64,000 nucleotides of DNA, from assembly GCA_015660915.1 (NCBI GenBank), contig JACTTZ010000003.1, forward strand, positions 4,479 through 68,478, read 5' to 3'. The translations under genes and the position numbers were made by a program. This DNA is from Methanomicrobia archaeon (lineage in GTDB: Archaea; Halobacteriota; Bog-38; Methanoflorentales; Methanoflorentaceae). Below are positions 1 through 21,350 of this stretch, piece by piece; position 1 is the stretch's first letter, and the number at the start of each line of letters is the position of its first letter. The notes under the pieces are model-generated. The model saw only the letters and a list, made by a program, of their open reading frames with translations, did not search any database and was not told the origin of the DNA.

Positions 1-35
1 TTCATCCTCAATACAAAACCTACTGTACACGGGGT

Positions 36-1403
36 TTGTGGCCGCCCGATATAACCCCTTACATAGAGTTTGATGAATCAAAAAAACAGATTTCACTGAA
101 ATATCTTCACAGTCCTTTTGACATACATATAAACAAGATATGGAAAGCCCGAATCGATGCAAACTATGAAAGCCCTTCAGTGTATGATTGGCAGAAACAG
201 TGGCACAACATCCGAAATAAGTCTCAATTGCTAACATCTGAGTATATAGAAGCATTTGAAGCGTTGATACTTCAAGACCAAAAAAGATTTAAGAGAAAAG
301 CAAATAAGATCGCGAAGCTCACAGAAGCGATTATTTCCTTTTTAGATGCGGACAGAGAATTTCCGACCAAAATTAATACCGCAATTGACTCAGAAAAGTT
401 CGAAAAAGAACTCAAGGACATCTCGGACTGGGCATCTTTTTGGCGCAGGTTTATCACCCAGCAGCCAACGTCAAGTCAAAATCAGATTAGCTATTTTGAT
501 AGACTTAAATTTGCCATCCAAGACACTTGCAGAGCACTGTTGAGTATGCAAATTGCTTACGACAAAATAGTAGAAGCAACCTTCTCTTACTTCAACGTTT
601 CACGTCTCAAAAATCAGGAAAGAGAGACTTACAACTATTTGTTAAAGATCGTAACTTTTCTTGCCCTAGAACCTGACAAAATAGGTAACATAGCCGCTCC
701 TAAATCAGCGATAAATCAATGGTGGGCTCAGCTGGATAAAAAACGAATTGAAAAGATTAGCGATGTTCTCAACCATCTTGAAAAAGAGCTTCATATGGAA
801 TTTATTAGGCCCTGTTATACAGTTCAACGAGGCGGTCTTCGAGAAACTGCGCTGGGCATGAAGGGGAAAAAATTAGAGCAATTTGATGAAGTTTTTCTCA
901 CGTCTTTGATACAAGGTTTGAGTGATTTAGCTGAAATCGAAATTGATCAGTATTTACTTATGTTCATTGATGATCATAACCGCGTGCAACGGTTTGACGC
1001 GATTTTGCTAACTAAAAGCTGTTTAAGCCACGTAAAAGAATTTAAAGGAACAGCGAAAGAATTCGAATGGGATAATTACAACAAGCCGCGTTTTGTTCCT
1101 TTTCAAGAAGACACGTTACGGTCTCTTCCTGAGGTCACATTCAAAATTGATCCAAGTCTGTTGTTGATGAGGAACATTGTGGTTAATATCTGGCATATAA
1201 CAGAAGTGCGCAGAAGGTTATCTCCAAATGTAGAAGTAGAATCCGCGTGGATGAAAGAATTAGTAGACATTCTTCGTTTGGAATTAAACGACTTTTTAGC
1301 CTCCTTAAAAGCTGAAACTTCCCAAGAAACGTGGAAAGCATACAACGATCTAGTAGAAGCTGTCCTTAGCGGAGATGAATCTTATACATCAGGCTTATTC
1401 TAA
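36..1403 (+). CDS. hypothetical protein on AT-rich island cargo; may start upstream of the window
   Basis: 455-aa ORF with no recognisable catalytic motif. Lys/Glu/Ile-rich and markedly AT-rich compared with core genes. Lies outside (left of) the partial tRNA att-like fragment. Confidence 0.4.
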   Translation: MWPPDITPYIEFDESKKQISLKYLHSPFDIHINKIWKARIDANYESPSVYDWQKQWHNIRNKSQLLTSEYIEAFEALILQDQKRFKRKANKIAKLTEAIISFLDADREFPTKINTAIDSEKFEKELKDISDWASFWRRFITQQPTSSQNQISYFDRLKFAIQDTCRALLSMQIAYDKIVEATFSYFNVSRLKNQERETYNYLLKIVTFLALEPDKIGNIAAPKSAINQWWAQLDKKRIEKISDVLNHLEKELHMEFIRPCYTVQRGGLRETALGMKGKKLEQFDEVFLTSLIQGLSDLAEIEIDQYLLMFIDDHNRVQRFDAILLTKSCLSHVKEFKGTAKEFEWDNYNKPRFVPFQEDTLRSLPEVTFKIDPSLLLMRNIVVNIWHITEVRRRLSPNVEVESAWMKELVDILRLELNDFLASLKAETSQETWKAYNDLVEAVLSGDESYTSGLF

Positions 1404-1603
1404 CAATCTCGTCACTATACACAACTTCGATTTTCTTATTGTGGCCGTATCAACATCGAACTTGCGCTGCTATAGTCGGACTCTATTATGTCTTCGAACG
1501 CACTGTCAACGTTAAACTCAAGAGCGACGCTCTAGCTATGTTTTGCAAGACGTCGGAAAAAGCTGAAGATCGAAAGAGAATGTGATTTGGGGTTATAGCT
1601 CGG

Positions 1604-1921
1604 TTAAACGATACCTTTGCAGACGCACCAGATCTCTCTATCTCTAAATTTAGTAGGGTCGAAAGGCTGAGTATCGTGAGTCAAATCGACTCTTTGAAAG
1701 GTGCTTGAGAAAAGCCTTCGAGCCGTTGAGTATTTTCGTTGCGCATACGGATCGGTGTATTTGCCCAGCAGATAATCACGCAGCGCAATCATATTGTCTT
1801 TGCAAAGCTGGCCGCGCGTCAAGTTCCAAAAAGTCTCCGTACACTTATTCATCCACGGAATTGAAGCCTTGCCGATCCTAGCCACACGAAATGCTCTGTA
1901 ACTTTCCAGCTCTTCTTGCAA
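1604..1921 (-). CDS. hypothetical protein; possibly a remnant of an integrase N-terminal (SAM-like core-binding) domain
   Basis: 105-aa ORF next to the tRNA 3' fragment. Weak resemblance (ALRDYL...STARRLF) to N-terminal helices of tyrosine recombinases. Speculative. Confidence 0.2.
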   Translation of the reverse strand: MQEELESYRAFRVARIGKASIPWMNKCTETFWNLTRGQLCKDNMIALRDYLLGKYTDPYAQRKYSTARRLFSSTFQRVDLTHDTQPFDPTKFRDREIWCVCKGIV

Positions 1922-2056
1922 TATTCAAGGGTAATTAAAGCGAGGTTGTTGGATTCGTTTGAGTTGTTTCTGCCTGAAGATTGTAATGGAGATTCCGACT
2001 TTTATTCAGTTTGCAGACTTGCGTAAAAGAAGCTATTTTTGGGCTTTATATCAAAA

Positions 2057-2108
2057 TTAGCGCCCTGTGGAGGCCACGACGCGGGTTCGAATCTCGCCCT
2101 CGGCCTTT
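2057..2108 (+). repeat. partial tRNA gene, 3' half only (variable region + T-arm GCGGG-TTCGAAT-CTCGC + acceptor 3' strand); probable att site of an integrated element
   Basis: Canonical T-stem/T-loop (GGTTCGAATC) followed by an acceptor 3' strand. No matching 5' acceptor (GCCGAGG) or D-arm within about 100 nt upstream. Confidence 0.5.
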
Positions 2109-2912
2109 GATTTTCTGTTTTCGTTAGAGCTATTAGCTTCGTTTGAAAGAAGAAATGATTTTAGTTCGCTAATCTCCGATTCCAATCTATTAAGCCGCTT
2201 AGTCATCTGATTTTGTTCAAGATTTGCACAAAATTTGCCAACGTGGTCGCCAACAGTAATCGCAAACGCAGGTTCTCCTCCAAGTTCCGTTTTGTAAATG
2301 TTGGCTGTCTTTCCGATTAGTCCTTTGAATTCACGTGGAAGTCGGATCACCGGATATGCGTGAGATGGGGTTGCGCTGTGGGCGCCTATCTTGTGCGTGC
2401 AGATCGGTTGCATACATAGCAGAACGCGCCAAACGTGCATAATTATTGTGATTCGCCGCAGTGCGTTTCAAGGGCTTTTTGCAGCATACCTCGTGCTTTC
2501 GCCACCACGCTTCCGAACGGGCCTCAGAAATCAAAGGAAATCGAAAAAAGAGATAACGGCCTAGGAGATAAGGAATGGGCGATAGGAACACGCTATCAGG
2601 CTATAATCTCTAAGAATGCCCCAATGGTTAACCACGACCAAATAATAATAAAAAAATCACAAAGATTATTGTTCCCCAAAATTGACGTACCGCATATGAA
2701 TCTGCGGCTCTTCGTGATTCGAGAAGTCCTGTCACAGCTACCACTAAAAACTCGCATAGCACAGAAAGAATAAGCATAAAGCTGATAGCACGCGCCATGC
2801 CGGTGCTGACGCCGACGAAACCCGCTTACTCTGGTCTAATGAGCCGCCAAATGCACGTACGCCCTACCTTTGTATTGCTACCGATGGTGTCTACTTTTTA
2901 GCGTACTCCCCA

Positions 2913-5723
2913 GTGATTGCGGACGCGACACTCAAAAACGTCACCCAAGATGATGTCGTCCTCAAAACAATCGAAAAAACGGACTGGACAGAGCTGACGT
3001 CGTCTGAAGTTTGTTACTGGCTTGATCGATATTTTCTTCGCCGCCAAGTCCTACCAGTGACAAGTGAACGCGTAATCCACGATTTCGGCACAAAGAGCCA
3101 CGCTTTTCAGACGACAACAAATCTCCTCGCTGCGCTTTGGCAAGAAGTTGAGTCACAGAGTGTCTATCAGGTAATATACAGCAACTGGGAAAAGTACCTT
3201 CGAATAGTTTACGGGAGTGACGTTTCGGATCAACAACTCTTCATTCGGCACACCTACTTGGCAACACTGGCGAAGCTAATGTCGTGGATGCGTATTAGTG
3301 AAAGTGTAAGCCTGCCACATAGCGATGAAATAATCGAAATACTAGAGGGAAGATTTTTCAGAGTCTATGGGATTGACAACTTTTTAGAAGAGGACTTTTT
3401 TTCGTGGCTTACTCACAAAGAAGCTTCAAAAATAGGCGTTAATGCTGTACGCTGGCTGTTTAGCCTGCTGCAGAACTACAATTTGCACGACTTGTCAGAG
3501 GACGTGCTAAAGACATTATATCAAGAATTGGTAGACCCAGAAACGCGGCACGACCTTGGCGAGTTTTATACGCCAGATTGGTTAGCACATCGCATTGTGA
3601 CGAAACTACTTGATGAGAAACCGGACGGGGCCCTCCTTGATCCTGCATGCGGGTCGGGCACTTTTCTTTATCTCGCCATCAGGGAAAAGCGTGAATGGAT
3701 GTCCGATTCTCCTAAAACCCTGCAACACGTATTAGAGTCGGTATATGGAGCAGATATACACCCTCTTGCCGTGATAATTGCTAAAACAAACTATGTCTTA
3801 GCACTAGGCGATCTGCTGAAAAAGCGAAAAAGCACGATTACAATACCCGTTTATCTGGCAGATACAATTCACTTACCTGAATGGGAAACGCAGCATAAAT
3901 TATCAATGGAGTTCTCGAGCTACCGTGTCGAACTAGATGGAGAAAAAATACGACTGCCCGAACCGCTACTTCAAGACCTCACTCTCTACGATCACGCAAT
4001 TGAGCTGGTAAAGGATTTCGCTGAACAGAATAAGGGCAAAGACGTCGAATCTGGACTTTTTCACAATTTTTTAGAGAAACGACATTTCCCAAAAATAGAC
4101 AATGAAATTCTAGTTGAAGCCCTCTTTGATATGGCGACTATCTTAAAACACTTTATCGAAGCGAACCGTGACACGATATGGGCATATATCCTCAAAAACG
4201 CCTATAAACCATTGTTTTTTATGCAAACGTTCGATTTCGTTGTGGGCAATCCGCCGTGGATAGTGTTACGAACCGCAGAGCCTGCGTATCAAGAGTTCTT
4301 AAAACAACAGGTGATGAAGGAGTACAGATTGTTAACCAAACGCGCAGAGCTGATAACCCATCTGGAAGTAGCCGCTCTTTTTTTAGCAAGAGCGGCAGAT
4401 TTGTATTTGAGACCCAGTGGAAAAATAGCCTTTGTAATTACGAGGAGCATATTTAGCAGCGATCAGCACGACGAACTGCGAAGAGGTACCTTCAGATTAA
4501 GCAATGACCCCGAACAACATCTAGCCTTTCAAGAAGTATGGGATTGTGAAGCAGTTACGCCGCTTTTTAATATCCCTGCATGCGTATTAATCGCAGAAAA
4601 AGGCCAAAATCAAACTCTTTATCCAATCAAAGGGCAAATATTAACTGGAAAACTAAGCCAAAAAAATATGTCACTACAGAGCGCGGCAAAAGAACTGCAC
4701 GTTGAAGATACGCGAATATCACTATGTTTTACTGGGACACGCTCTTTCTGGTCTACTCTTGACTGCAAAGAAAAGAAAGCGGTTAGTCCGTACAAAACGA
4801 AATTCATGCAAGGTGCCACAATCATACCTCGCTCTTCATGGATTGTCGAACCTAGCTCACAAAAATATGGATTTGATGAGTTTCGCCCTATGGTAGAAAC
4901 TGCAGGTTATGCCGTAAAGAAAGCAAAAAAGCCGTATAAGGACTTATTTATAAAAGGCAATATTGAAAGTGACTTCCTTTATACTACACTTTATTCGGAA
5001 GATCTGATTCCTTTTGGACATTTTGACTATCGTTTGACCGTTCTACCCGTTGAACCACAGGCAGATCAATACAAACTTGTTGAATCGGAAGAGGCGCGCT
5101 TGCGCGGGTATTCTGACCTAGCACAATGGGTGGAACGCGCAGAAAAAGAATGGACAAAACGGGGCAGTTCAAAAGTGGGGCGAATGAATGCATTGGAACG
5201 GCTAGATTATCGCCACGGGCTGACAAAACAAAATCCCCAAGCACGGTGGCGAGTAATCTACAACACTTCTGGCACTTATTTAACGGCCGCGGTTATTCAA
5301 AGTGCAGAAGTTAAGAACATATTAGGAGAGAACGACACTAGTACAAAAGGATTTGTTGCAGATCACAAAGTCTACTTTTTCGATCTAAACAACAGAAGCG
5401 AAGCATTTTACTTAGCGTCGATTTTGAATGCACCCATCATCGATAGGCTTATAAAGCCAATGCAGAGCCGAGGGTCGTGGGGGCCGCGAGACATTCACAA
5501 AAAAGTTTTTGAGCTTCCTATCCCGCAATTTGACGCCACGAACGCCGAACATCGCAAGTTGAGCGAATTAGGTGAAGGATGTACGGACAAAGTGCAGAAC
5601 TGGGTGTTAAGCGGAGGAAAAGGAAAAATCAAAAGTATAGGAAAGTTACGCTCAATAGTTCGTGAGATGCTGCAAGAAGAACTAAATGAAATCAATCCGA
5701 TTGTTGTGAGAATTTTGCAGTAG
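2913..5723 (+). CDS. gamma-class N6-adenine DNA methyltransferase, type IIG/IIL-like large single-chain R-M/BREX-PglX-like protein
   Basis: Motifs in order GEFYTP (motif X), LDPACGSGTFL (motif I, AdoMet binding), NPPW (motif IV), followed by a C-terminal region of about 480 aa, presumed TRD. The N-terminal 220 aa have no obvious PD-(D/E)xK nuclease motif. Confidence 0.65.
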   Translation: MIADATLKNVTQDDVVLKTIEKTDWTELTSSEVCYWLDRYFLRRQVLPVTSERVIHDFGTKSHAFQTTTNLLAALWQEVESQSVYQVIYSNWEKYLRIVYGSDVSDQQLFIRHTYLATLAKLMSWMRISESVSLPHSDEIIEILEGRFFRVYGIDNFLEEDFFSWLTHKEASKIGVNAVRWLFSLLQNYNLHDLSEDVLKTLYQELVDPETRHDLGEFYTPDWLAHRIVTKLLDEKPDGALLDPACGSGTFLYLAIREKREWMSDSPKTLQHVLESVYGADIHPLAVIIAKTNYVLALGDLLKKRKSTITIPVYLADTIHLPEWETQHKLSMEFSSYRVELDGEKIRLPEPLLQDLTLYDHAIELVKDFAEQNKGKDVESGLFHNFLEKRHFPKIDNEILVEALFDMATILKHFIEANRDTIWAYILKNAYKPLFFMQTFDFVVGNPPWIVLRTAEPAYQEFLKQQVMKEYRLLTKRAELITHLEVAALFLARAADLYLRPSGKIAFVITRSIFSSDQHDELRRGTFRLSNDPEQHLAFQEVWDCEAVTPLFNIPACVLIAEKGQNQTLYPIKGQILTGKLSQKNMSLQSAAKELHVEDTRISLCFTGTRSFWSTLDCKEKKAVSPYKTKFMQGATIIPRSSWIVEPSSQKYGFDEFRPMVETAGYAVKKAKKPYKDLFIKGNIESDFLYTTLYSEDLIPFGHFDYRLTVLPVEPQADQYKLVESEEARLRGYSDLAQWVERAEKEWTKRGSSKVGRMNALERLDYRHGLTKQNPQARWRVIYNTSGTYLTAAVIQSAEVKNILGENDTSTKGFVADHKVYFFDLNNRSEAFYLASILNAPIIDRLIKPMQSRGSWGPRDIHKKVFELPIPQFDATNAEHRKLSELGEGCTDKVQNWVLSGGKGKIKSIGKLRSIVREMLQEELNEINPIVVRILQ

Positions 5724-5873: not shown

Positions 5874-6785
5874 CTACTCTTCGGTGAAGAAATCAGAATC
5901 GACTTGTTTTATTTCGTATTCGACGACCTTTGACACCCCGATGCCGTGATCGATCATAAGCTGTGCCAACATATCTCCATTGATAAGAACAACCTTATCC
6001 TCTATTTGCGAGGCATAGTCCGTTGCTTCACGTGAAAAATCAGCCGTAGTAATGAATACGCCTCTGCGTGCGCGCTGACCGTGGAGCGCCCCAACGAACT
6101 TCTGAATCTCCGGTCTGCCGACCGTCGCTTCCCACCTCTTAGCTTGCACGTAGACCACGCCTAACCCCAATGGGTCTTCCTTGATAATGCCATCTATCCC
6201 TTCGTCGCCGCTCTTGCCTAGCGCCTGTCCGGCATCTTTGATTGAGCCGCCATACCCCATCTCAACAAGTAGTTTAACCACTAGTCTCTCAAAAAAGCTA
6301 GGAGAACAGACTTTCAGTTTATCGAGCAGCTCTCTAGCCAAGTTCAGCCTCAGCTCCTGATAGGCATTTTCCATCACCTCAACGGGCGTCTGATCAGGGA
6401 CTTTTGCAGATTCGGCTTCGCCTTCTGTTCTATCTTCTTTTTTCCGCTGCAAGAACCCCACGAATCGCGGATATTGCTTTAAAAACTTGACGTCTATTGT
6501 CTTGGGACTCGCCTTAAGCGCATTTACGCCGTCTTCCGTTATTTTAAAAAAAGAGCGCCTCGTAGAGTCGACCAGCCCTGCTTTTTTTAAGTAAAACAAC
6601 CCCCATCGGACTCTGTTATCAAAAACTTGCTCGTAGCCGCTTGGCAATAGTTCTCTCCTTTCCTGAGTTGATACTTCAAAAACCGAAGCGACGTAGTCGT
6701 ATGCGTCGCTTATCGCGTGCTCTTCCTCATCAGAAGCGTATTGTAAGAGTGGGAGCATTGCTTGTTGGTATTTGGGAATAGCCAT
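5874..6785 (-). CDS. mrr: Mrr-like type IV (modification-dependent) restriction endonuclease
   Basis: N-terminal Mrr_N winged helix (AIPKYQQAMLPLLQ...) plus C-terminal Mrr_cat-like region (GIDGII...VYVQAKRW). Likely true start at the internal Met MAIPKY preceded by GAGGTG. The ORF-track start at 6917 adds a 44-aa Arg-rich extension. Confidence 0.65.
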   Translation of the reverse strand: MAIPKYQQAMLPLLQYASDEEEHAISDAYDYVASVFEVSTQERRELLPSGYEQVFDNRVRWGLFYLKKAGLVDSTRRSFFKITEDGVNALKASPKTIDVKFLKQYPRFVGFLQRKKEDRTEGEAESAKVPDQTPVEVMENAYQELRLNLARELLDKLKVCSPSFFERLVVKLLVEMGYGGSIKDAGQALGKSGDEGIDGIIKEDPLGLGVVYVQAKRWEATVGRPEIQKFVGALHGQRARRGVFITTADFSREATDYASQIEDKVVLINGDMLAQLMIDHGIGVSKVVEYEIKQVDSDFFTEE

Positions 6786-6959
6786 AGCACCTCTTCTCAA
6801 ACATCGTCTCGAAGTATTCTCTGTTCGATATCTCCTAGCTAGATGCAGTAAAACCGTGCGACTGTTAAGACCCCTCAAACTCACAGATTTATTGTGGCGG
6901 TTCTTAAATCGCCGCAAACCAGTTGCTTAGCTGACTTGCTCAGTCTTCTTTGCTTACGT

Positions 6960-7430
6960 TTATTTTTTTTGGCTTGTTTTTTTAGCTTGTGAGATTATCC
7001 GATCGTAATCGCTTTGCGGAATCTGAACCACAGCTTTACCTCTAATAGGGCCAGTCCAGTATGTCTTGTTCGGTAAGAAAGAAAGTCTCAGTATTAAAGG
7101 CTTAAAATCGATGGGTGGTTCAAATACCCTTACAGCTTCCAACCGTAATCTCAACGGAAAAGTTTCATTTGGCGTATTCGGAGGTGTAACGAACAGCTTC
7201 TTGCTGTCTTCGAAGACTGTTGAAGCGATCTCATATTGTGCAACTATCTTCGGTCTTAACGTTTCGCCTGCGCTAATTTCACCTTTCACATAAACTAAGC
7301 ATTGGTCGCCTTTCTTTACTCTGGAGAGCGCATTCTTGTATCGTGCAGAAGCCCCGAGAATATTTGTCTTCTTTGTGATTGTCCAGTTGTCAGAGTTTGT
7401 TACATAGATCCAGTAAGCCATAGCCATCAA
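6960..7430 (-). CDS. EVE (PUA-like) domain protein, putative modified-base reader
   Basis: Starts AYWIYVTNSDNW...; size about 150 aa; PUA-like beta-barrel signature typical of EVE/ASCH proteins. Sits directly beside Mrr. Confidence 0.5.
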   Translation of the reverse strand: MMAMAYWIYVTNSDNWTITKKTNILGASARYKNALSRVKKGDQCLVYVKGEISAGETLRPKIVAQYEIASTVFEDSKKLFVTPPNTPNETFPLRLRLEAVRVFEPPIDFKPLILRLSFLPNKTYWTGPIRGKAVVQIPQSDYDRIISQAKKTSQKK

Positions 7431-7840: not shown

Positions 7841-7920
7841 TGTTTTTACCGTGTTTTTTCCCTACTTTTACCGACCGTTTGCCGCTGCTTGACCGACACT
7901 TTTTTACCACCTGTTTACCC
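7841..7920. repeat. iteron-like cluster of TTTTACC motifs (at least 4 copies); candidate replication origin of the integrated element
   Basis: Repeated gtgtttttacc / cttttacc / ttttttacc / tgtttaccc within 80 bp in a non-coding stretch near the primase-helicase gene. Confidence 0.35.
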
Positions 7921-8185
7921 TTCCTAAAGACGTTCTGTATGATTCCAAGATACACTTTTCACGTTCGTTCAGCTCAAGGGCAAAGATTCGATCAGAAAAA
8001 GCTTGTGCCCGCTTGACCCTATCGTATCTCGCACTATACCGTTCAAGTTGGCGCAAGGAAAGAGAGAGGCTGTAGGTTTGCCGCAGCTTCTGAAGTGATC
8101 GGGAAGGGCCCATGTCTCGATAAAGGCAAAAAAGCTCATACGCCTTGCTGCGTTCATTGGGTAAACGATCCCATGCTTCGGTCAT
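7904..8185 (-). CDS. hypothetical small protein
   Basis: 93-aa ORF in the island, no motif. Confidence 0.25.
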   Translation of the reverse strand: MTEAWDRLPNERSKAYELFCLYRDMGPSRSLQKLRQTYSLSLSLRQLERYSARYDRVKRAQAFSDRIFALELNEREKCILESYRTSLGRVNRW

Positions 8186-8203
8186 TCAAACGATTCCTTT
8201 ATC

Positions 8204-8449
8204 TCAAGGAGGGCAGCACATAATCGATCTTCTGACGCGGCGAATCTTAATATACCCTGACCGAGCCAATCTGTGAACCCTGTAGTAGAGTTCCTGATAG
8301 GCGGTGTCATAGAACTCTTTGTTGAGATCGGCAAGCGGTACGCACTCTAGATTGTGACCAATAGAAAGCCCCAGAGTGAAACGGGATCTCCTGCAAATCC
8401 GAGCTATGATTTGCTCATCGAGTTCATTGATTTTGTTTTTGTTATTCAC
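8204..8449 (-). CDS. hypothetical small protein (overlaps the primase-helicase start)
   Basis: 81-aa ORF with an 8-nt overlap with the upstream gene, suggesting an operon. Confidence 0.3.
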   Translation of the reverse strand: MNNKNKINELDEQIIARICRRSRFTLGLSIGHNLECVPLADLNKEFYDTAYQELYYRVHRLARSGYIKIRRVRRSIMCCPP

Positions 8450-11169: not shown

Positions 11170-11183
11170 GTCGTGAATGTCGG

Positions 11184-12714: not shown

Positions 12715-12737
12715 GGCGGAGATCATAACTCTCCGCC
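12715..12737. terminator. perfect 8-bp stem / 7-nt loop hairpin GGCGGAGA-TCATAAC-TCTCCGCC followed by a T-rich tract
   Basis: Inverted repeat seen directly in an intergenic region. Confidence 0.3.
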
Positions 12738-12785
12738 ATCTCTCCATTTTACAGTGCTCTGATTGTTTTTGTTTTGTCTTTCCTC

Positions 12786-13418
12786 CTACGGGTTCGCATT
12801 CTCTGTCGGTCGACGTGTCTTATGCAATGAGAACTCCACAGCCACCGAATCTTCTGCACCTTTCCGAGGCTTTTCCCCACGCTCCACCCGATCAAAAAGT
12901 GCCATAATGTCGCCGTCTTGATCCTTGTAAAGCACCCACACATATGTTAGTGACAAGGGTTCATCGATCGGAAGGCCATCCTCCACCTTCTGAACCGTCG
13001 CAATCCATTTTGAAACGACAGAATTGCAGACATAGCACCAGCTTGATCCAGATTTTAATTGGCTGTACGAAAAACCGATAAGGGGGTCGCTGCTGTGAAT
13101 ACCGTCAGCTTGTACACTAAGACCGAGGCTCTTAGCCACGTCGTCAGCGTGGAGAGAATCCCATACGATTCTGATGAACCTGATGGTAGATTTCCGCACA
13201 GGCCAACGCATAGGATCATGTGTAAGCACCCAAAAAGCAACGATTTCGCCGACCGAATACTCAGGCCAATTGCTTGGCCCGCCTCGACCTTTTCCTTCGC
13301 TCTTGTGGTAACGACGAGGCGCGGTAATGACCCCTTCGTGGGCAAGCTTTCTGATTGTGCTGGAAGCTAAACCAACTCCGTATTTGTGTAAATGAGCCTG
13401 AAGTTCGTCGACTTGCAC
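12786..13418 (-). CDS. hypothetical protein with N-terminal HTH-like segment
   Basis: LASSTIRKLAHEGVI helix-turn-helix-like stretch; the rest is unknown. Confidence 0.3.
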   Translation of the reverse strand: MQVDELQAHLHKYGVGLASSTIRKLAHEGVITAPRRYHKSEGKGRGGPSNWPEYSVGEIVAFWVLTHDPMRWPVRKSTIRFIRIVWDSLHADDVAKSLGLSVQADGIHSSDPLIGFSYSQLKSGSSWCYVCNSVVSKWIATVQKVEDGLPIDEPLSLTYVWVLYKDQDGDIMALFDRVERGEKPRKGAEDSVAVEFSLHKTRRPTENANP

Positions 13419-13546: not shown

Positions 13547-13836
13547 ATGCAAAAGATCCAAGAATTGTTACCAGATCACAGCACCAGCATCCTAGAGATA
13601 ATCAATGATGCCGCCAATGCTTACAAAGGCGCCATCCCTGATGACCGATGGAAAGAGCCGTACATGTCAGCGAACGAACTGGCCGATGAAATAAGAGCCG
13701 GCGTTCGATTCCACGGGTGGTTTGAAGACGGCTTTTTAGTGGGCATCGCGGGATTCAAAATGTCGGCGGCTTCAGGATCAATAAGCGGGGGTAGCGTGAG
13801 GTTCCCAATGCTTTTTAATCTAGACATCCTCTGTTT
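13547..13836 (+). pseudogene. possible truncated/frame-disrupted acetyltransferase-like ORF
   Basis: The N-terminal 95 aa look protein-like. The tail overlaps the convergent pentapeptide gene and is low-complexity. Confidence 0.2.
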
Positions 13837-15393
13837 TCATCCTTGTCGCTGCTGTTTTTCTCTAAATGCCTGCACAAGTTTGGCTGAGCGTTCCCTGTCG
13901 CCTTTAATTGCTTCTTGCGACACCGCCTTAGCAGGCTCTATTACGTTTTTGTTTATCGATTTGACCAGATCGGCCGTATCTTCATACCAATAGGTATCGA
14001 GAATCATCGTTTCAAGTTTCTTTCGCAAGCCAATCAGCACCATATGCTCTCCCTTCGCTTTTTCTGAGGCGACTCGGATGGGCAGTATAGGCACAGCAGC
14101 GCCCGTATCAGCGATGTGTTGCACCTCGATAGGCACCATCTCAGGGTCAGTAAAGTCAGCGATAACGAACTGCGCCATACGTGCAAGAGTAGATACTGTT
14201 TCGATAAACGTTTGGCTCTCCGGTTTTTCAAAGTCGAATACTACAGGCACATAGTCATGATGACGAAGTTCGTCTCGGACTGCGTCGAGCGTCGGCTTTT
14301 GCTCATCAGTGAAGCGGCCGAGGAGAAGCACGACTTTTGAGGTCATAATATCAATAACATTTCGCAGCTTTTCGTATTTCGTTAGCAAATAGATGAACTG
14401 CGCGACCTCAAGGTCGTCAACGGTGATCACGGGCTCTCGTTCGTATATATTGCTGATGTTCAAGTTTGACTGATCTTTTGGCTTACCTTGAAGGTTCCAC
14501 ACCGAGCTACCGTACACGGCACATCCAGCAAAAATGGCATCCGCGATGGTCGTTTCTACAAAAATTGCCCTCGTGAGATTGGCGTCTGAAAGGTCGGTAC
14601 CTGTCAGATCCGCATTTGAAAGATCGGCAGAATAGAGGGTAGCGTGAGAGAGGTTAGCGTGGGAGAGGACGGCTTTGTAGAGGTGGGCTTCTCGCAAGGT
14701 GGCGCCAGAGAGGTTGGCGTCGGTGAGCTTGGCCTTATAGAGGTGGGCGCGGGTGAGGTCGGCTAACGAGAGGTCGGCGCCCCTCAGATCCGCATTTGAA
14801 AGATATGCGTCGACAAGAATAGCGCCAGAGAGGTTAGCGCCGGAGAGGTGGGCAAAGGAGAGGTGGGCCTCGCTGAGATTAGGCCTCACCTCAGAGTACT
14901 TATCACGCCAACTGTTCCACTCGTCAACGCCTTGTTTCAGAATTTCAAGGTGCGATTCATTTGCCGTAGAAGATCTCACTGCGAGCGTCAGGCCGGCGTC
15001 GGTGAGGTCTGCACCCGTCAGATCCGCATTTGTAATGTTAGCGTTAGAGAGGTCGGCGCCGCTGAGGTCGGCGTTAGAGAGGTCGGCGCCAGAGAGCTCG
15101 GCGTTAGAGAGGTCGGCGCCAGAGAGGTCGGCGCCAGAGAGGTTAGCGTCGGTGAGCTCGGCGTGGGAGAGGTTAGCGCCAGAGAGGTTAGCGCCAGAGA
15201 GGTCGGCGTCGGTGAGGTCGGCGTAGAAGAGGTCGGCTCCGATGAGGTTGGCTTCGTAGAGGTCGGCTTCTGGGAGGTGGGCGCCGCTAAGATCGGGCCT
15301 CACGTCATGGTACTCTTCACGCCAACTGTTCCAGACTTTAAAGCCTTGCTTTAGGATTTCGAGATGTGATTCATTGACCATCGAAGATCTCAC
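13837..15393 (-). CDS. pentapeptide-repeat protein with duplicated N-terminal module and a C-terminal non-repeat alpha/beta domain
   Basis: Long runs of A(D/N)LSGA(N/D)L pentapeptides. Two copies of the module ESHLEILKQG..WNSWR..Y.(D/E)VRP(D/N)LS.AHL. The C-terminal 190 aa are non-repetitive (KVVLLLGRFTDEQ...VPVVFDFEKPE...FVIADFTDPE). Confidence 0.7.
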   Translation of the reverse strand: MRSSMVNESHLEILKQGFKVWNSWREEYHDVRPDLSGAHLPEADLYEANLIGADLFYADLTDADLSGANLSGANLSHAELTDANLSGADLSGADLSNAELSGADLSNADLSGADLSNANITNADLTGADLTDAGLTLAVRSSTANESHLEILKQGVDEWNSWRDKYSEVRPNLSEAHLSFAHLSGANLSGAILVDAYLSNADLRGADLSLADLTRAHLYKAKLTDANLSGATLREAHLYKAVLSHANLSHATLYSADLSNADLTGTDLSDANLTRAIFVETTIADAIFAGCAVYGSSVWNLQGKPKDQSNLNISNIYEREPVITVDDLEVAQFIYLLTKYEKLRNVIDIMTSKVVLLLGRFTDEQKPTLDAVRDELRHHDYVPVVFDFEKPESQTFIETVSTLARMAQFVIADFTDPEMVPIEVQHIADTGAAVPILPIRVASEKAKGEHMVLIGLRKKLETMILDTYWYEDTADLVKSINKNVIEPAKAVSQEAIKGDRERSAKLVQAFREKQQRQG

Positions 15394-15581: not shown

Positions 15582-15720
15582 TTATCTGGAAATTATGAGC
15601 TTAACGTTATTCCAATATTGCATATACACATCATATGCGTGCTCAGGCAGCGGATGCTTATAGTGCTTCCAATCGATACCGCTGACGCCGTGCGTCGTAC
15701 ACGCTCTGACCGACAGAATC
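15582..15720 (-). pseudogene. tyrosine integrase C-terminal remnant (...THGVSGIDWKHYKHPLPEHAYDVYMQYWNNVKL*), no start codon
   Basis: Strong protein/DNA similarity to the C-terminus of the intact integrase 20218-21045. Confidence 0.5.
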
Positions 15721-16030
15721 GTAATGCCGCCCAATAATTTCTGCTCCTTCTTATGTGCGCGCTGTGAGCTAAGGCAAACTTGTCTGCCAAGCTACCTGAA
15801 AATGTGAACCCAGAGATTGATCGCCATAGGTACCATCGTCACTATGATAACCAAGATGACGAACAGTGGCGTTATTTTTGCTTTTCCACGCCAGACAAGA
15901 TAAAAAACAATAGCATCGGTGACTGCGACGATGATGGTAGCGATAATAAGAGCTCTCACAAAGAGGTCGACCATAGTTTTACTGCTCACGCTTCAGTGTT
16001 CATTTGATTCAAAAAACTGTTAGCGACAGT

Positions 16031-16264
16031 TTAGTTGTCTAGGCGGGTATTGTGCCAATATTTTATAAACCCGTAATAAACGTGCTCAGGCAAAGGATGC
16101 TTGTCATGCTTCCAATCTATACCGCTCACGCCATGCGTCATTATGTAAGCACGATTTGACTGATCCCAGCCTATTGCGTCACCGCCCTGCTCGCAAAACT
16201 TGCGCAGATCGCCAAGCACGAAATGCCCCTTAAACTGTGACATCGGAATCTTCTGCCGTTTCAT
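16031..16264 (-). pseudogene. tyrosine integrase C-terminal remnant (box II + catalytic Tyr region)
   Basis: GDLRKFCEQ...WDQSN..Y.(L/M)THGVSGIDWKH.KHPLPEHVY matches the intact integrase C-terminus. Confidence 0.6.
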
Positions 16265-16448
16265 CTATATCCCCAAAAAGCCATGTCGGAAAACAGCTTC
16301 ATCGTCTTTTTTTCTTCGATCGACTCCCCGCCAAAGATGGCGTATTGGAAAGGATTATTCGTTAAGTTCAACAAGAGTCGGTTGCGAACCTTCATGCTGA
16401 ACTGGCAAACCACCAACGACAAGGATCTTTGCCTTAGACGACGCATCT

Positions 16449-16781
16449 GTGAATATGGAACTACCTGCACTAACGCAGTTTATCGCTAACATTAGCGTGG
16501 CGGTCGACGCCGGCTACGATACAAACGTTGCCGAGATACGCGCCCACATCGAACGCGGCGATATCATATCGTTTTTAACAGATATGTGCTGCGCCGATCC
16601 CGTTCTAATGGCAAAGCTCGTGCGTGAGCACTGGGCAACAGAGACTGAGAATGAGCTTAATGAGCTACTCGGTGATGAGTCAGGAGACGAAAAACTTGCG
16701 GGGAGCTTCAATCGAAGCGGCTTATGCTACCTCATCGCGCTTACGACGCGACTGATTGAGCGGCGCTCTTTCAGGGCTTAA
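16449..16781 (+). CDS. hypothetical protein
   Basis: 110-aa ORF, no motif. Confidence 0.25.
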   Translation: MNMELPALTQFIANISVAVDAGYDTNVAEIRAHIERGDIISFLTDMCCADPVLMAKLVREHWATETENELNELLGDESGDEKLAGSFNRSGLCYLIALTTRLIERRSFRA

Positions 16782-17134
16782 ACGCACTTAGGCAGTTCGT
16801 TTTATGAGCGCCATGGATTTACGGTGGTTTCGCGCGAGGAGACGAATGAGCTTCTGCAACAGCACTAGAACATTCTAAGAAGGCAAATCGAGACGTCGGT
16901 TGTGCTTAAGCTAATACTTGCAGATTCCCGCTGAACTGCACCAGTCTTGGGCATCAAAAATGGTCTTCTGGCGGCCAAAGCATGGCCCTAAACTCGCGGT
17001 TGAAAAACATTGCAAAGCTGCATACTGGAGCTTAAACTTTGAAGTGTACATCTTTCCAATACCGTATGTACGCATCATACACATTCTCGACCGAAAGAGT
17101 TTAGTGTTGGTTTTATACTTTTTTTTTCCAAATA

Positions 17135-18406
17135 ATGACGATTATCATAGGGATCAATTTCGGTGCGTATGTGTTATTAGCTGCCGATACACGAGCTACT
17201 CTCCTCAACTTGAGCAACCGCCCATACCGCCGTCGCGATGATCACAAAAAGATTAACAAGACTAGCTCTGGCATAGTCGCAGGTCGAGGTATTGATGAAC
17301 TCCTTGAACTTGTCAATTCCAAGTTTGATGAAATTCATGAGATCATTAGTACTGATGAAGTTCGAAGAATCATAAACAATGAAAGACAACATTTCCGCGA
17401 ACTTTACCCAGAGAACAAACAAGGCATTGAAAACACTGCTTGGATTTTTAGCTATTTAACGTTTAGCGAAGGAACTTTCGACAAAGGCACACCGACTCTT
17501 CGACTAGGCGTCAATGGTCGTGGCATAGACATCATTGGACGTCGCCACATAGTCGACAACTGCCCTTGCGTAATTCCGCCACCCGAGGCAACTAAACAAG
17601 ATGCTAGTTTTATCTTTGACTTTCTGAATGAATCAATAAAGGGCTTCGATCAGTTTAAGACGATAGGCGACAGCATCGAATATCATTGGTCATTAATTGC
17701 CCGTTTAATTCGAACAATTCAGCCTAAGTTTGATAGCATAAGTCGTCATTGTCAGATAGGTGTGCATACACTAGACGGTCATACCGGTATATCTTCAATT
17801 CTAAAAGACACCGATACTAGCGCTTCAATAACTCTGAAGCCACCACCTTCACCGTCGAGCGTCATATCTACCGTGGGACGATTAACTACTCTGACGAACG
17901 AAGCATATGGGTTTAGAATAACATATCCTGTAACTTGGAAAATTGAAGAGGCGCTTTCCGCGTTTGATCCCGTCAGAGTCCGCATCTTCTTACCTACAGA
18001 TGATTACGAGGATAACGTTAGCGTTGCTATGTTCAGTCTCGAGCCAAATACATCGCTTGATGGCGTTATCAAATACAACTTAAATGATATTCGAAACCTT
18101 AACGACATCCGCCTTGTATCAGAAAGAAACTCCACTATCGCTAATCATCCTTCCTACACAGCGGTGTTTGAAGGGATTGTTCCTGTTCAGCTAAGCGAAA
18201 CGTCTCCCGTCGCCCAAGATATAATACATAAAGCGAAACAAATATGCGCGGTGAATAATGACGCGCTTTACGTCGTCACCTACAAAACGGCGCGAGACAA
18301 GTACGACCAGTATTTAGCGCCAGCGCAACGAATCATGGATTCTTTTGTTTTCGTCAGACCACACGATATATTCAAACCGAACAAAAAATGGTTAATTCGA
18401 TACTGA
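17135..18406 (+). CDS. Ntn-hydrolase (proteasome beta / HslV-like) domain protein fused to a C-terminal domain of unknown function
   Basis: N-terminus MTIIIGINFGAYVLLAADTRAT mirrors the proteasome-beta TTIVGIK..GVVLAADTRAT, with Thr2 positioned as a potential N-terminal nucleophile. The C-terminal 200 aa are a beta-rich domain, possibly PsbP/Mog1-like. Confidence 0.4.
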   Translation: MTIIIGINFGAYVLLAADTRATLLNLSNRPYRRRDDHKKINKTSSGIVAGRGIDELLELVNSKFDEIHEIISTDEVRRIINNERQHFRELYPENKQGIENTAWIFSYLTFSEGTFDKGTPTLRLGVNGRGIDIIGRRHIVDNCPCVIPPPEATKQDASFIFDFLNESIKGFDQFKTIGDSIEYHWSLIARLIRTIQPKFDSISRHCQIGVHTLDGHTGISSILKDTDTSASITLKPPPSPSSVISTVGRLTTLTNEAYGFRITYPVTWKIEEALSAFDPVRVRIFLPTDDYEDNVSVAMFSLEPNTSLDGVIKYNLNDIRNLNDIRLVSERNSTIANHPSYTAVFEGIVPVQLSETSPVAQDIIHKAKQICAVNNDALYVVTYKTARDKYDQYLAPAQRIMDSFVFVRPHDIFKPNKKWLIRY

Positions 18407-18609
18407 GAAATGTTCTTCTTAGATCGTATATAGATGCCGAACCTGTGCTCAGGCAGACAGATGTTTACAGCGCGGTAAGGGTTCCAATATGGAGCGTTTC
18501 GCGCTTCTTTTTTCTTGGTTGCACGCCTACGCTATATCCGCACGTGCTTTCATCTAAGTTATCGGTCAGGGCACGGATCGTCTCACGCTAACCGCACATC
18601 CGCCCAATA

Positions 18610-18861
18610 CTAGATATACGTATCATAGACGTTCTCCGGCAATGGGTGTTTGTAGTGCTTCCAATCGATGCCGCTCACCCCGTGCGTCAGGATGTCAGCG
18701 CGATTTGGTTGGATCCACTCGATAATACCAATACTGTTCACGAAACTACACAGATCGTTGGGTAGCGCTTCTGTCAGCGGTAGGATCTGGCAGGGCAGTG
18801 CCGCAGTTTGCGTGCGTACGAGGCACATCGAATGCCACCATCCCCACATTTTTTTCATCAA
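18610..18861 (-). pseudogene. tyrosine integrase C-terminal remnant
   Basis: ...ILTHGVSGIDWKHYKHPLPENVYDTYI* matches the intact integrase. The upstream part is unrelated. Confidence 0.55.
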
Positions 18862-19078
18862 GTCTCAAAAGAAGCCCCTGAACGAAGGAAATTCAAAAAA
18901 GAGATGATGATCGGGGAGTAACTAACAGGCTAGTCTAAACGTAATAACTAGATTTCAAGGTGCCACCTTAATCCAGCCGTGCCCTTATCGCGCGGCTAAA
19001 ATGCTCATTCAAGCGCTTTGATGGGGGGAAACCCTATATCGCGGAACCTTTCATAACCGTGTAAAGGAGGTAAGTAGA

Positions 19079-19489
19079 ATGGTCGCACTACCTGAAAAGG
19101 TAATAGAGAACTTCAACACGTGGAAGGGGCGCGCCCGCGCCGTGTTCGCGACGGTAAGCGATGCGGGCGTACCCAACGTGGTTCCTGTTGGGGCGCTTAT
19201 GGTGAAAGATCCAGAGACGATCCTCATCGGCGACAACTTCTTCAAGAAAACAGCCGAAAACGTGAGGCGACCGAACTGCCATGTGGCCGTAACGTCGTGG
19301 ATCGGCAGGGAGGGCTATCAGGTGAAGGGCACTGGTAACTACGTGACTGACGGCCCCGACTACGAGATGATGAAGCAGTTTATAAAGGCGATCAACCCGA
19401 ACCTGCCAGCTAAGGGCTGCCTCGTGATGAAGGTCACTGAGGTGTTTGACGTCGCGCCCGGGCCGAGCGCGGGAGAGAAGATCGTGTAG
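19079..19489 (+). CDS. pyridoxamine 5'-phosphate oxidase-like FMN/F420-binding split-barrel protein
   Basis: Size about 135 aa; pattern NVVPVG..ILIGDNFF..T..N typical of PNPOx-related small flavin-binding proteins. Confidence 0.55.
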   Translation: MVALPEKVIENFNTWKGRARAVFATVSDAGVPNVVPVGALMVKDPETILIGDNFFKKTAENVRRPNCHVAVTSWIGREGYQVKGTGNYVTDGPDYEMMKQFIKAINPNLPAKGCLVMKVTEVFDVAPGPSAGEKIV

Positions 19490-19908
19490 ATCGGTGTCGA
19501 AAAAATAAGCACTCGTGCAGGCTTTTATGATCCCACAAGTATAGCGCATACGCGTCATATGCATCGCAGCGGATGCTTATGACGTCACCACTCTACGCGT
19601 GAAACTCCGTGGGGCAAGACATCATTGCTTTCGCTGCAATCTGAAATGCTTGGTGATATAACCTCTTATTTTGTTTATAACCCCGACGCTGAAGTCTGTT
19701 ACACTTCCCGGCCGAGGCTTAACAGTCGGTTCACCTTTCGCTACCTGCTCACCGGTTTACACTCTCTTGTAGTGGAAAGCGACAGGCTCGTTACCTTTTA
19801 AATGGACTGGCAAAGCGAGTGCATTTGTCTCAAGATATCAGTTGAACCGAAAGACAAAAAATAACTGAACTCAAAGCGACGAACAAACTAGATCCAGTCT
19901 GCGAATGG

Positions 19909-20196
19909 GTGGGAGGTGAAACATTGCAAAGCGACGAAGAACTGATGAGGTTAGCTCGAAAACGCGCTGAAGACAGGGTTGGATTCTATATACACCTCAC
20001 CATTTACGTCGTGGTGAACCTTTTCCTCGTAGCCGTATGGTGGTTTACAGGCGCGGGGTTCCCGTGGTTTGTCTTTGTGATCGGTTTTTGGGCGATCGGA
20101 TTAGTCGCCCACGGCGCGAGCGTCTTTATGGGGGGTGGAATGACGGATAGGATCACTGAACGCGAATATCAGAAACTCAAACGAGATAAGGAATAG
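19909..20196 (+). CDS. 2TM-domain small membrane protein
   Basis: Two hydrophobic helices after a basic N-terminus (RVGFYIHLTIYVVVNLFLVAVWW...); resembles 2TM family proteins. Confidence 0.4.
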   Translation: MGGETLQSDEELMRLARKRAEDRVGFYIHLTIYVVVNLFLVAVWWFTGAGFPWFVFVIGFWAIGLVAHGASVFMGGGMTDRITEREYQKLKRDKE

Positions 20197-20217
20197 CGAG
20201 CGACCTTTTTAACTGGG

Positions 20218-21045
20218 CTAAGCGTCGAATCTCACATCTTTCCAGTACTTCATGTATACGTCATACACGTTCTCAGGCAGCGGGTGCTTGTAAAATCGCC
20301 AATCGACACCTGAAACGCCGTGAGTGAGTACATAGTTCTTATTCGATTGATCCCACAGCAGAATATCGGATTGTTGCTCACAGAATTTTCTTAGATCTCC
20401 GTTTACTATACGGGCCCCGCTGTTCAACAATCGAACGCCAGTGTGCTTGAGCCACTCCTGAAAGGATAGTTGCTGAAAAACAAATTCATCATCAGGCCGA
20501 TCTTCCAACGCGGGAATCATCGCCTCTACAACTTGCGGATGCAGGGGGCAATAATGCTGCATTCGGATTTTGTCTTGCCACGGAAGCACGTCGACAGCAG
20601 GCTTCTTCGTTTTCACAGCTTCCCTGAACTGGCCGACGGTTAACCGTGCTATTGTTGCCAAAGGCCGCTGCCCAGTGAACGCACCAAACAACGTCAGTGC
20701 TTTGTAATTAAGGCGGTGATAGTCATCTATCCGCCCGACACTATAGGAGAGTTCAATCGCCTTCAGCACATTCTCAACGTCTTCTTTCGTAATGATTCTC
20801 GAAGTGACATGCTTACGCGTTTTGAGCGTTTTAGGCATTTCCAAAAAGAGTTCAAATGCCTGAAAGCGCATGTCGAACGTCGTCTTCGCGAGATACTTCA
20901 AAAGACCTTTGGTGAAATAGAGCACTTTGCGTTTTGAATAGACGCAAGTGTATTTTGTCAGAGTGAAATTGCGCACTGCGTCTATCGTTTCCTTGCTAAC
21001 AGTGCCGTGCGTATGCTTCCAGACGATTTCAGCCGCCTTATTCAT
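20218..21045 (-). CDS. int: tyrosine recombinase / phage-type integrase (intact copy)
   Basis: Catalytic signature in order: R (TGQRPLAT), H..LRKF (box II), HGVSGVDWRFY (His/Trp + Tyr nucleophile). Three co-oriented C-terminal remnants lie nearby. Confidence 0.7.
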   Translation of the reverse strand: MNKAAEIVWKHTHGTVSKETIDAVRNFTLTKYTCVYSKRKVLYFTKGLLKYLAKTTFDMRFQAFELFLEMPKTLKTRKHVTSRIITKEDVENVLKAIELSYSVGRIDDYHRLNYKALTLFGAFTGQRPLATIARLTVGQFREAVKTKKPAVDVLPWQDKIRMQHYCPLHPQVVEAMIPALEDRPDDEFVFQQLSFQEWLKHTGVRLLNSGARIVNGDLRKFCEQQSDILLWDQSNKNYVLTHGVSGVDWRFYKHPLPENVYDVYMKYWKDVRFDA

Positions 21046-21271
21046 CCAGTTGCTGCTCTTCCGGTCAAGGCCTGCTTTACGCCATTTTTTATAACCAATA
21101 AGCTGGTTTCGTGAGAACGTTAATTGAAGTGAGCTAATGTCTTGCCCGTTTACTGATTCAAGTGGAACTCTAATCCGTGCTTTTTCACTCGTTAAAATGG
21201 TTTGAAATAAGCTTTGAGCATCAGAAATGTCTTGCTTTGTCGAAAGAGCACCAAAAAGAGGAGGAGAGCTC

Positions 21272-21350
21272 GACAGGGCTCCATGATAGGCCGCTACACT
21301 ACCCGGGCTTGCGCAAAAATGGTGGTTGCACAGAGCACAACTTACTAGGC
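21272..21350. repeat. about 80-bp imperfect direct repeat copy A (gacagggctc..tgataggccgctac...gcttgcgcaa...tgcacagagc)
   Basis: About 80% identical to 22414-22490; the pair flanks the 21390-22169 gene. Confidence 0.7.

Follow-up and report, generated by a model that had tools for sequence, protein, structure and literature searches.

A predicted split, SSV-type tyrosine integrase in a composite mobile island at tRNA-Asp(GTC) of a peat archaeon

Self-splitting integrases are known mainly from hot-spring and deep-sea archaea; SSV-type archaeal integrases were reportedly treated by She et al. in 2002. Most tRNA-targeting elements have an intact integrase and leave the displaced 3' part of the tRNA gene as a repeat. 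The DNA considered here is a stretch of 64,000 nucleotides of contig JACTTZ010000003.1 (hereafter the window), whose host is a Bog-38-like peat archaeon labelled "Halobacteriota/Euryarchaeota archaeon". With high confidence, its first 22.5 kb constitute most of a composite mobile island of about 26 kb in tRNA-Asp(GTC), next to hypE. The island carries at 20218-21045 an open reading frame (ORF) which, judged from homology and reading frame, is the C-terminal half of a split, SSV-type (type I, "suicidal") tyrosine integrase.

What defines the SSV-type (type I, "suicidal") integrases of archaea is that their gene is split upon integration (PMC7253208, PMC8371274). The SSV, pTN3-like and pT26-2-like suicidal integrases all share PF16795, and a review treats them as a hyperthermophile adaptation that arose once, with one Pfam domain as its mark (PMC8371274). 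Targeting of the 5' end of a tRNA gene was recorded in 1 of 73 cases (Badel et al. 2020, PMC7253208). As in SSV1, pTN3 and pT26-2, the attachment (att) sites described below lie within the integrase ORF, so that int(N) and int(C) border the integrated element and can be rejoined (Int-A and Int-B). Moreover, the att site is part of a tRNA gene read sense or antisense to the integrase, related integrases aim at different tRNAs, and the N- and C-moieties appear exchangeable. Unlike these systems, the family studied here has no match to PF16795 or any other Pfam family, shows GDLR instead of KxxR and leaves arrays of 3' stubs; a whole sub-lineage carries the tRNA 5' half together with the promoter region, a target found only once by Badel et al. 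Its hosts are mesophilic peat archaea, whereas the SSV1, pTN3 and pT26-2 families are said to be essentially hyperthermophilic apart from five cases in Methanosarcinales.

Two other systems invite comparison. With pNOB8-type (type II) integrases and bacterial tRNA islands, the locus shares tRNA integration, direct repeats and a hot spot for cargo and defence genes; in those systems the integrase gene is left intact and the tRNA 3' part beside it forms the repeat, whereas here the gene is split and the repeat of the main element, E-A, is the tRNA 5' half with its upstream region. Like the pT26-2-like and pTN3-like integrative plasmids, the island combines a D5-type primase-helicase, a mini-A-like topoisomerase, a tyrosine integrase and variable cargo. 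Unlike theirs, its integrase has no nucleotide or protein match to deposited plasmids, and the backbones are likened by gene content. A similar primase-helicase and mini-A module has been reported from an Asgard plasmid (PMC11529989).

The insertion was recognized by comparison with locus L090 (hypE 92% identical at the nucleotide level), in which hypE is followed by about 100 nt and an intact tRNA-Asp, in other words an empty site. Collinearity of L090 with the window extends over 23499-22414, after which L090 continues directly in the tRNA-Asp region beyond the left end of the window; about 26 kb are therefore inserted in the window genome relative to L090. The site is polymorphic, since in L014, L015, L016, L017 and L020 it holds islands of 4-12 kb, and the arrangement of the window recurs identically in at least 24 contigs from independent samples (24/24 read). 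The window start falls within a 1317-aa gene, so that the island reaches about 3.7 kb farther left; this sequence was taken from metagenome contigs with identical proteins (locus L009, where window position = L009 position - 7088). The initial annotation had proposed an accreted mobile-element and defence island rather than core chromosome, to be checked by a search for the empty site in relatives, and the comparison with L090 agrees with it. The lower G+C that it had noticed is also real: 0.472 in 1-22497 against 0.529 in the remainder of the window, or 0.471 against 0.528 as the mean of 1-kb windows (Mann-Whitney, p = 8e-7).

The split integrase and its tRNA-Asp attachment sites

Two features at the right end of the island define element E-A:

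20218-21268, minus strand: Int-A(C), C-moiety of the E-A integrase, 350 codons, delimited by homology and open frame
21269-21406, minus strand: attL of E-A, a 138-nt direct repeat whose other copy lies at window -3782 to -3645 (137/138 identical)

An in-frame ATG at 21045 yields a 275-aa ORF (20218-21045), which had first been taken for an intact integrase. The conserved sequence does not begin there. The left-hand homolog int-B aligns to 21282-20233, that is, from 75 codons upstream of this ATG, and the frame stays open with no ATG, GTG or TTG between 21046 and 21342. No stop codon or frameshift interrupts the 350 codons. On the minus strand, the Int-A(C) frame emerges from a copy of the tRNA-Asp upstream region and tRNA nt 1-40, and an ORF of 163 codons, situated ahead of the complete tRNA-Asp left of the window, passes through this upstream region in the identical frame. 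The N-moiety, Int-A(N), and the second copy of the 138-nt repeat adjoin this functional tRNA-Asp, 3.7 kb left of the window and about 25 kb from Int-A(C). Joining Int-A(N), taken from L009, to the Int-A(C) of the window through the repeat restored an uninterrupted ORF of 489 aa. A database search with the rejoined Int-A returned contiguous full-length relatives of 502, 449, 443 and 434 aa; the contiguous full-length homologs comprise P0014 (502 aa, 99% coverage), P0027, P0001, P0002 and P0006. The segment ASPGSVAAYHGALS, which is the translated tRNA-Asp 5' half, is present in many full-length relatives of Int-A, and the B-type relatives contain the translated tRNA-Asp 3' half.

The 138-nt repeat is composed of 98 nt of tRNA-Asp upstream, promoter-like sequence followed by nt 1-40 of tRNA-Asp(GTC), tRNA position 40 being its last. 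Besides the tRNA 5' half, about 67 nt upstream of it are common to the two repeat copies of L014, one on the hypE side and one on the Int(N) side; the attachment block therefore includes native upstream sequence. A TATA-like AAAGCTTTATTAT motif lies in this native part, which suggests that the upstream sequence may be the tRNA-Asp promoter. In the closed chromosome of a relative (L016, OY969693.1), a contiguous full-length integrase (N, att, C; protein P0006) is encoded at 10001-11445, 4 kb upstream of a second Int(N) (15679-16133) that adjoins tRNA-Asp; this looks like a tandem integration that restored an intact suicidal integrase.

A second split-integrase element, E-B, lies outside the window on the 3' side of the same tRNA-Asp. 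Its integrase gene int-B (372 codons), left of the window, starts inside the tRNA-Asp 3' half. In L088, a 173-kb contig with an identical int-B, an exact 56-nt repeat made of tRNA-Asp nt 29-74 and 11 nt downstream occurs at two places 10.6 kb apart, and the Int-B halves rejoined across it give an ORF of 455 aa. The backbone genes of E-B are the same module as that at 7904-13418 of the window, diverged in sequence. The 138-nt and 56-nt repeats overlap at tRNA-Asp nt 29-40, the anticodon stem-loop, which is likely to be the common crossover region of E-A and E-B. The tRNA-Asp expressed at present would then consist of an element-supplied promoter and 5' half joined to an element-supplied 3' half.

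The assignment to tyrosine integrases is supported by an AlphaFold2 model (mean pLDDT 79) with a two-domain fold, core-binding plus catalytic, and by a match to the integrase family phrog_216 (E = 5e-6). In an alignment of 44 sequences, R201 and K233 are invariant and R293, H316 and Y326 are conserved in at least 90%, their roles being assigned by motif position only. The residue three before R293 is Gly (NGDLRK) and not H, K or Y; the family consensus NGDLRKF thus has Gly at the K position of the SSV1-type R...KxxR...Y signature. No Pfam family matched the 275-aa ORF or reached threshold for the integrase family, PF00589 being touched by only 3 of the 44 members at E of about 0.01; the integrase also found no sequence match in PDB and no tblastn match in phage or plasmid records. 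The family is abundant in mesophilic peat archaea of Bog-38 type: with one genome scanned per species, it was found in many copies in the closed peat metagenome-assembled genomes (MAGs) OY970393, OY969693, OY969924 and OY970258, and also in Methanoregula, Methanospirillum and Archaeoglobus. Within the limited literature searched, we found no paper on this integrase family in peat archaea.

The best-surviving alternative concerns activity. The 275-aa Int(C), started at ATG 21045 or by read-through from the tRNA promoter region, might still be expressed and active, and the island self-mobilisable. The absence of stops and frameshifts over 350 codons and the single difference among the 138 nt of the two repeat copies speak for it. 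However, a product started at the ATG would be devoid of the whole N-moiety and of about 75 conserved residues, among which L47, L49, Y59, R63, G66 and W74 are near-invariant in the family. In the published in vitro experiments with other suicidal integrases, the proteins were complete (PMC8371274), and the identical arrangement in all 24 contigs read means that no excision was observed. We consider current activity of Int(C) unlikely.

Integrase 3' stubs and their cassettes

Left of Int-A(C), a repeat search, tblastn and a family hidden Markov model (HMM) located five integrase C-terminal stubs, together with a small gene beside one of them and four cargo genes:

15597-15698, minus strand: stub f5, last 34 or so codons including the catalytic Tyr motif (HMM positions 268-301, i-E = 1e-18)
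15792-15989, minus strand: small hydrophobic (membrane-type) ORF directly downstream of stub f4, seen from its translation and recurring elsewhere
16043-16318, minus strand: stub f4, last 92 or so codons, no stop within (HMM positions 209-300, i-E = 1e-42)
17041-17088, minus strand: stub f3, last 16-20 codons (E = 0.001; HMM positions 286-301)
18592-18783, minus strand: stub f2, last 57-70 codons approximately, one stop codon (HMM positions 244-300, i-E = 5e-25)
19567-19641, minus strand: stub f1, about 25 codons interrupted by stops, more degraded than the others (E = 8.5e-4; i-E = 5.6e-5)
16449-20196, plus strand: four cargo genes between stubs, each converging on an integrase 3' end, namely
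16449-16781, plus strand: 110-aa ORF
17135-18406, plus strand: PsbP-like protein, 423 aa
19079-19489, plus strand: PNPOx-like protein
19909-20196, plus strand: 2TM-domain protein

The three C-terminal fragments and the weak trace of the initial annotation were thus recovered (the trace at 19567-19641; the family HMM by itself gave 19567-19638 for the trace and 18592-18759 for f2), but its count missed f3, the fifth stub. All five stubs keep the natural C-terminus and stop codon and have lost their 5' ends, and each is paired with one convergent plus-strand gene. Their starts are scattered (HMM positions 209, 244, 261, 268 and 286), as they are over the whole family, where they spread broadly over positions 180-300. 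A census of 151 family loci yielded 157 full Int(C), 152 3'-terminal stubs, 13 5'-terminal fragments and 6 internal fragments, with co-oriented arrays of at least two stubs in 36 cases and of at least three in 21. The cassette formed by the membrane-type ORF 15792-15989 and its stub has nucleotide matches of 84-93% in L013, L023, L027, L031, L142, L159 and L160.

Most likely, the stubs are leftovers of earlier tandem integrations after deletions. These deletions would have taken out the internal att, the Int(N) next to it and the greater part of the older Int(C), and thereby locked the adjacent cargo into the island; such losses would be tolerated, and deletions reaching into the adjacent cargo would not.

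The array also resembles an integron, in that an integrase gene is followed by co-oriented short repeated units alternating with single cargo genes. Capture of cassettes in an integron-like manner was therefore considered, with a site in the integrase 3' end at which an incoming cassette replaces the 3' end and displaces the old one. Several observations fit: every stub retains its natural stop and has lost its 5' end, stubs equal full genes in number and are lined up in one orientation at 36 or more loci, the membrane-gene cassette recurs in several genomes, and each stub of the window faces one convergent gene. Unlike integron units, however, those seen here are degraded remains of integrase coding sequence that differ in their 5' ends and give no evidence of an attC-like site. 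The stub boundaries do not mark one site; the stub of one and the same cassette, that of the membrane gene, varies between genomes from 18 to 92 codons; and the orientation of the genes between stubs is mixed at other loci. Furthermore, synonymous-site identity is flat along the integrase gene (0.31-0.46, with 0.43-0.46 at the 3' end) and therefore gives no sign of a DNA-level site there. A recombination site in the integrase 3' end was rejected on account of this flat identity, the scattered boundaries and the varying stub length, and cassette capture as a whole appears quite improbable as compared with residues of tandem integration.

Variants of the array were sought in the population by a look-up of the PNPOx cassette, which gave the same arrangement in 24/24 contigs read. 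Four independent assemblies (L005-L008, including the NCBI MAG GCA_049523195.1) end at the equivalent of about 19600-20010, 200-600 bp past the integrase 3' end and within or just beyond the 2TM gene. This suggests strain heterogeneity at that place; every contig that continues has the same array.

The tRNA-His fragment, the island borders and the gene content

At the left of the window, a lone tRNA 3' half belongs to a separate unit, E-H:

1-1403, plus strand: 3' third of a gene for a 1317-aa Cap4-nuclease and nSTAND NTPase protein, cargo of E-H, starting about 2.55 kb left of the window
1604-2061, minus strand: truncated Int-H(C), N-proximal part of the C-moiety, from protein homology over 1658-1918 and in frame with Int-H(N)
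2062-2117, plus strand: attHis, tRNA-His(GTG) nt 31-74 and 12 nt downstream, right repeat of E-H, antisense to the integrase frame
2118-2440, minus strand: Int-H(N), N-moiety of a tRNA-His-specific integrase, homologous to Int-A(N), Int-B(N) and the N-termini of P0027 and P0078

A tRNA 3' half with no 5' half had been noticed here from the start, and positions 2062-2105 are indeed 100% identical to nt 31-74 of the tRNA-His(GTG) genes of L022, L074 and L061, from the anticodon loop through the variable loop, T-arm and acceptor strand to the discriminator C. No 5' half was found at this place, where neither ARAGORN nor Rfam calls a tRNA; with Rfam on 1800-2400 and E up to 10, only a T-arm-sized match to the tmRNA/tRNA clan appeared. 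A second copy of the fragment within the window (up to 3 mismatches) was not found either. An intact matching tRNA had been expected in the window or its flanks; the only tRNA genes that ARAGORN and Rfam detect in the window are two distant ones on its right side, and neither matches. These two minus-strand genes, 52388-52471 (84 nt) and 59372-59469 (98 nt), score 55 bits each with Rfam, and ARAGORN reports four-base "anticodons" for both; they are probably intron-containing archaeal tRNAs.

The second copy of attHis (93% identical, 55-56 nt) lies at window -3269 to -3215, 5.3 kb to the left. The two copies enclose a small ribbon-helix-helix (RHH)-type ORF, the 1317-aa Cap4-nuclease/STAND gene and the truncated integrase C-moiety. 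The Cap4/STAND gene corresponds to L009 4538-8491; PF14130 and PF25199 are recorded for its product, and its N-terminus matches LmuA/DUF4297 (E = 1e-6). On the minus strand, Int-H(N), the antisense tRNA-His segment and the Int-H(C) fragment follow each other in one frame, ORF127 (2440-2057) reading through attHis. The N-proximal integrase fragment at 1658-1918, which adds to the pieces listed initially, matches residues 59-145 of int372 (int-B) with E = 2.5e-11, and four stop codons fall within 1922-2061. The intact 429-aa homolog P0078 aligns continuously across the junction (2115-1796); Int-H is therefore an unsplit integrase pseudogene, in attP configuration. In L088, a single attHis copy, identical to that of the window, is present, the 5.3 kb between the copies are missing, and the right flank of attHis matches the sequence beyond the left copy. 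We read E-H as a nested, SSV-type insertion of 5.3 kb into an element-borne att site of tRNA-His type.

Two kinds of N-moiety precede an antisense segment of tRNA-His type, one of the "YPxxRLP" type and one ribbon-helix-helix-like (MSKxxRLxEDVYxALKAR). A unit of N-moiety and attHis lies directly upstream of an Int(N) adjoining tRNA-Asp in three places (N-moiety sites L088 20034-20315, L009 3925-4095 with 3819-3873, and window 2057-2440).

These data bear on a classical tRNA island, in which 20218-21045 would be an intact, non-split integrase and the tRNA 3' half at 2057-2108 the att repeat of the whole island, as the initial annotation had implied. The 275-aa ORF has an ATG and no stops, the tRNA fragment is real, and most tRNA-targeting elements are of this kind. 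However, conserved sequence runs in frame from the ATG 75 codons upstream into the tRNA-Asp 5' half, the N-moiety missing there is found at the opposite island end, and the two halves when joined form a single ORF. Near the integrase there is neither a tRNA-His gene nor a second tRNA-His fragment, and the second repeat, 5.3 kb off, flanks only the Cap4-STAND module. Finally, the empty site of L090 is tRNA-Asp. A classical island is thus very improbable, and the fragment is better placed in the nested E-H, with tRNA-Asp as the attachment site of the island.

The outer right border was located by a repeat search and the flanks of L014 and L090, with the following features:

21390-22169, plus strand: TrmB-like gene, within the remnant of an older A-type element
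21407-22403, no strand assigned: this remnant, with the TrmB-like gene and a few codons of an older Int(N) beside the repeat
22404-22497, minus strand: decayed native attachment site (tRNA-Asp upstream region and 5' half), the outer right border

The segment 22404-22497 aligns to the hypE-side flank of L014 and L090, with substitutions and indels in the tRNA part. We read it as the original 5' half, displaced by an older integration; on this ground the border is set at 22497 and not at 21350, where the region had been closed before. Residues 93-145 of ORF163 align to 21429-21271, a trace of the older Int(N). If 22404-22497 is the older displaced 5' half, the TrmB-like gene and the Int(N) codons would therefore be the remains of an older element. 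Four paralogs of the TrmB-like protein (29-56% identical) cluster at 39172-44165, in a stretch of lower G+C (0.45-0.48 at 40-41 kb and 43-45 kb), and the TrmB-like family was also found within the integrase-stub arrays of L028, L033, L037 and L058.

That nothing was inserted, the region being ancestral and variable or mis-assembled and the repeats a local duplication of the tRNA-Asp 5' region, is the least probable reading of all, for although G+C is uneven within the island (up to 0.53 at 10-11 kb) and all data are metagenome assemblies, the same structure was assembled independently from many samples by different assemblers (JGI, ENA, NCBI MAG), a close relative has the empty site and others different contents at the same site, and both ends carry complementary halves of one ORF.

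The remaining genes of the island are as follows:

2913-5723, plus strand: type IIG-like N6-adenine methyltransferase, 936 aa, possibly with restriction activity (N6_Mtase, Eco57I; REase_MTase_IIG E = 2.6e-94)
5874-6917, minus strand: Mrr-type (type IV, modification-dependent) restriction endonuclease (Mrr_N, Mrr_cat; mREase_IV E = 1.4e-85)
6960-7430, minus strand: EVE-domain protein (PF01878, E = 3.8e-17)
7904-13418, minus strand: replication/backbone module of E-A, six genes including primase-helicase and topoisomerase, namely
7904-8185, minus strand: small terminase-like/helix-turn-helix protein
within 7904-13418, minus strand: 81-aa ORF
8442-10580, minus strand: D5_N primase-helicase (phrog_1156 primase, 4e-90)
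10577-11134, minus strand: 185-aa protein
11184-12020, minus strand: topoisomerase mini-A-like protein (phrog_6247 topoisomerase, 3.9e-45)
12786-13418, minus strand: 210-aa protein
13837-15393, minus strand: pentapeptide-repeat protein, 518 aa, cargo (PF00805, E = 2e-76)

The mobile-element genes named initially, that is, the D5 primase-helicase, N6-methyltransferase, Mrr, EVE and mini-A-like (phrog_6247) genes, were all found. The match of the type IIG-like protein to the PADLOC profile of 1100 positions is confined to positions 289-1060; the protein may be missing the nuclease domain at its N-terminus and serve solely as a methyltransferase. With known defence genes clustered on a mobile region, the locus would qualify as a defence island by gene content. 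The backbone module gave a further match to phrog_6299 (1.4e-15). A 63-nt direct repeat (89% identical; 11107-11169 and 11993-12055) lies at the 5' ends and upstream of the adjacent backbone genes 10577-11134 and 11184-12020, whose proteins both start with MGGE(G/V)M. An ORF of 148 aa (13547-13993, plus strand) overlaps the 3' end of the opposite-strand pentapeptide-repeat gene; it has no Pfam match and is annotated as a gene in several contigs.

Assembly history and what it may mean

The builders of the island were very probably integrative, plasmid-like elements with a D5 primase-helicase backbone and an SSV-type integrase, whose gene is cut into Int(C) and Int(N) at opposite element ends because the attachment site lies within its reading frame. 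For E-A, the embedded site is the tRNA-Asp promoter region with the 5' 40 nt, and for E-B the 3' part of the same tRNA. An older A-type element has probably decayed to about 1 kb (21407-22403) beside the decayed native site. E-H probably entered an element-borne site of tRNA-His type and brought the Cap4-nuclease/STAND gene, its integrase being truncated later, and the five stubs alternating with cargo genes represent a further layer. Repeats, split ORFs, empty site, polymorphism and fold were observed directly, whereas the place of crossover, transcription of the tRNA from a promoter on the element and the way in which the stubs arose are inferred.

Some observations weigh against this history. 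PF16795 (Phage_integr_3) was absent in three proteins with E up to 10 and in the 44 members with E up to 0.1; because there is no match to it or to another Pfam family and GDLR stands for KxxR, the relatedness to the known suicidal families could be convergent. No excised circular form of E-A was found, and the database search with rejoined Int-A gave no copies above 73% identity, which bears on current mobility. In L088, the Int-H(N) flank is a diverged allele, so that this locus is not a clean isogenic empty site for E-H. As regards the deletion model, no Int(N), RHH-type N-moiety or att remnant was found beside any stub of the window, although att repeats beside each fragment had been anticipated, and stub decay does not rise with distance from the intact Int(C). 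Moreover, short stubs are detectable only at the most conserved part of the protein, which inflates the 3' bias to an unknown extent.

Beyond this locus, we tentatively propose, as a possibility towards which we do not lean, that self-splitting integrases are not a speciality of hyperthermophiles and that a separate family without Pfam match prevails in the mobilome of archaea from cold, acidic peat (Bog-38-type, Methanoregula, Methanospirillum). Inside their ORFs, its sister lineages would carry one part or the other of the same tRNA gene, the promoter with the 5' half or else the 3' half, and serial integrations followed by att-removing deletions would regularly lock cargo and defence genes in place, leaving arrays of stubs.

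If this is true, a host tRNA gene could become wholly element-supplied. Since A-type elements carry the tRNA promoter region and 5' half in a coding frame, the element would have to drive the expression of an essential tRNA, and their promoter-carrying att would be a case of a gene embedded in a gene. The same self-splitting strategy in a multicopy, Pfam-less family of mesophilic peat archaea would mean either that the clade of suicidal integrases is greatly widened or that the strategy had a second origin. Integrase-stub arrays may serve as a marker for such histories in the annotation of MAGs. The locus may illustrate how a defence island grows in layers, by tandem integration, nested integration at an element-borne att and decay.

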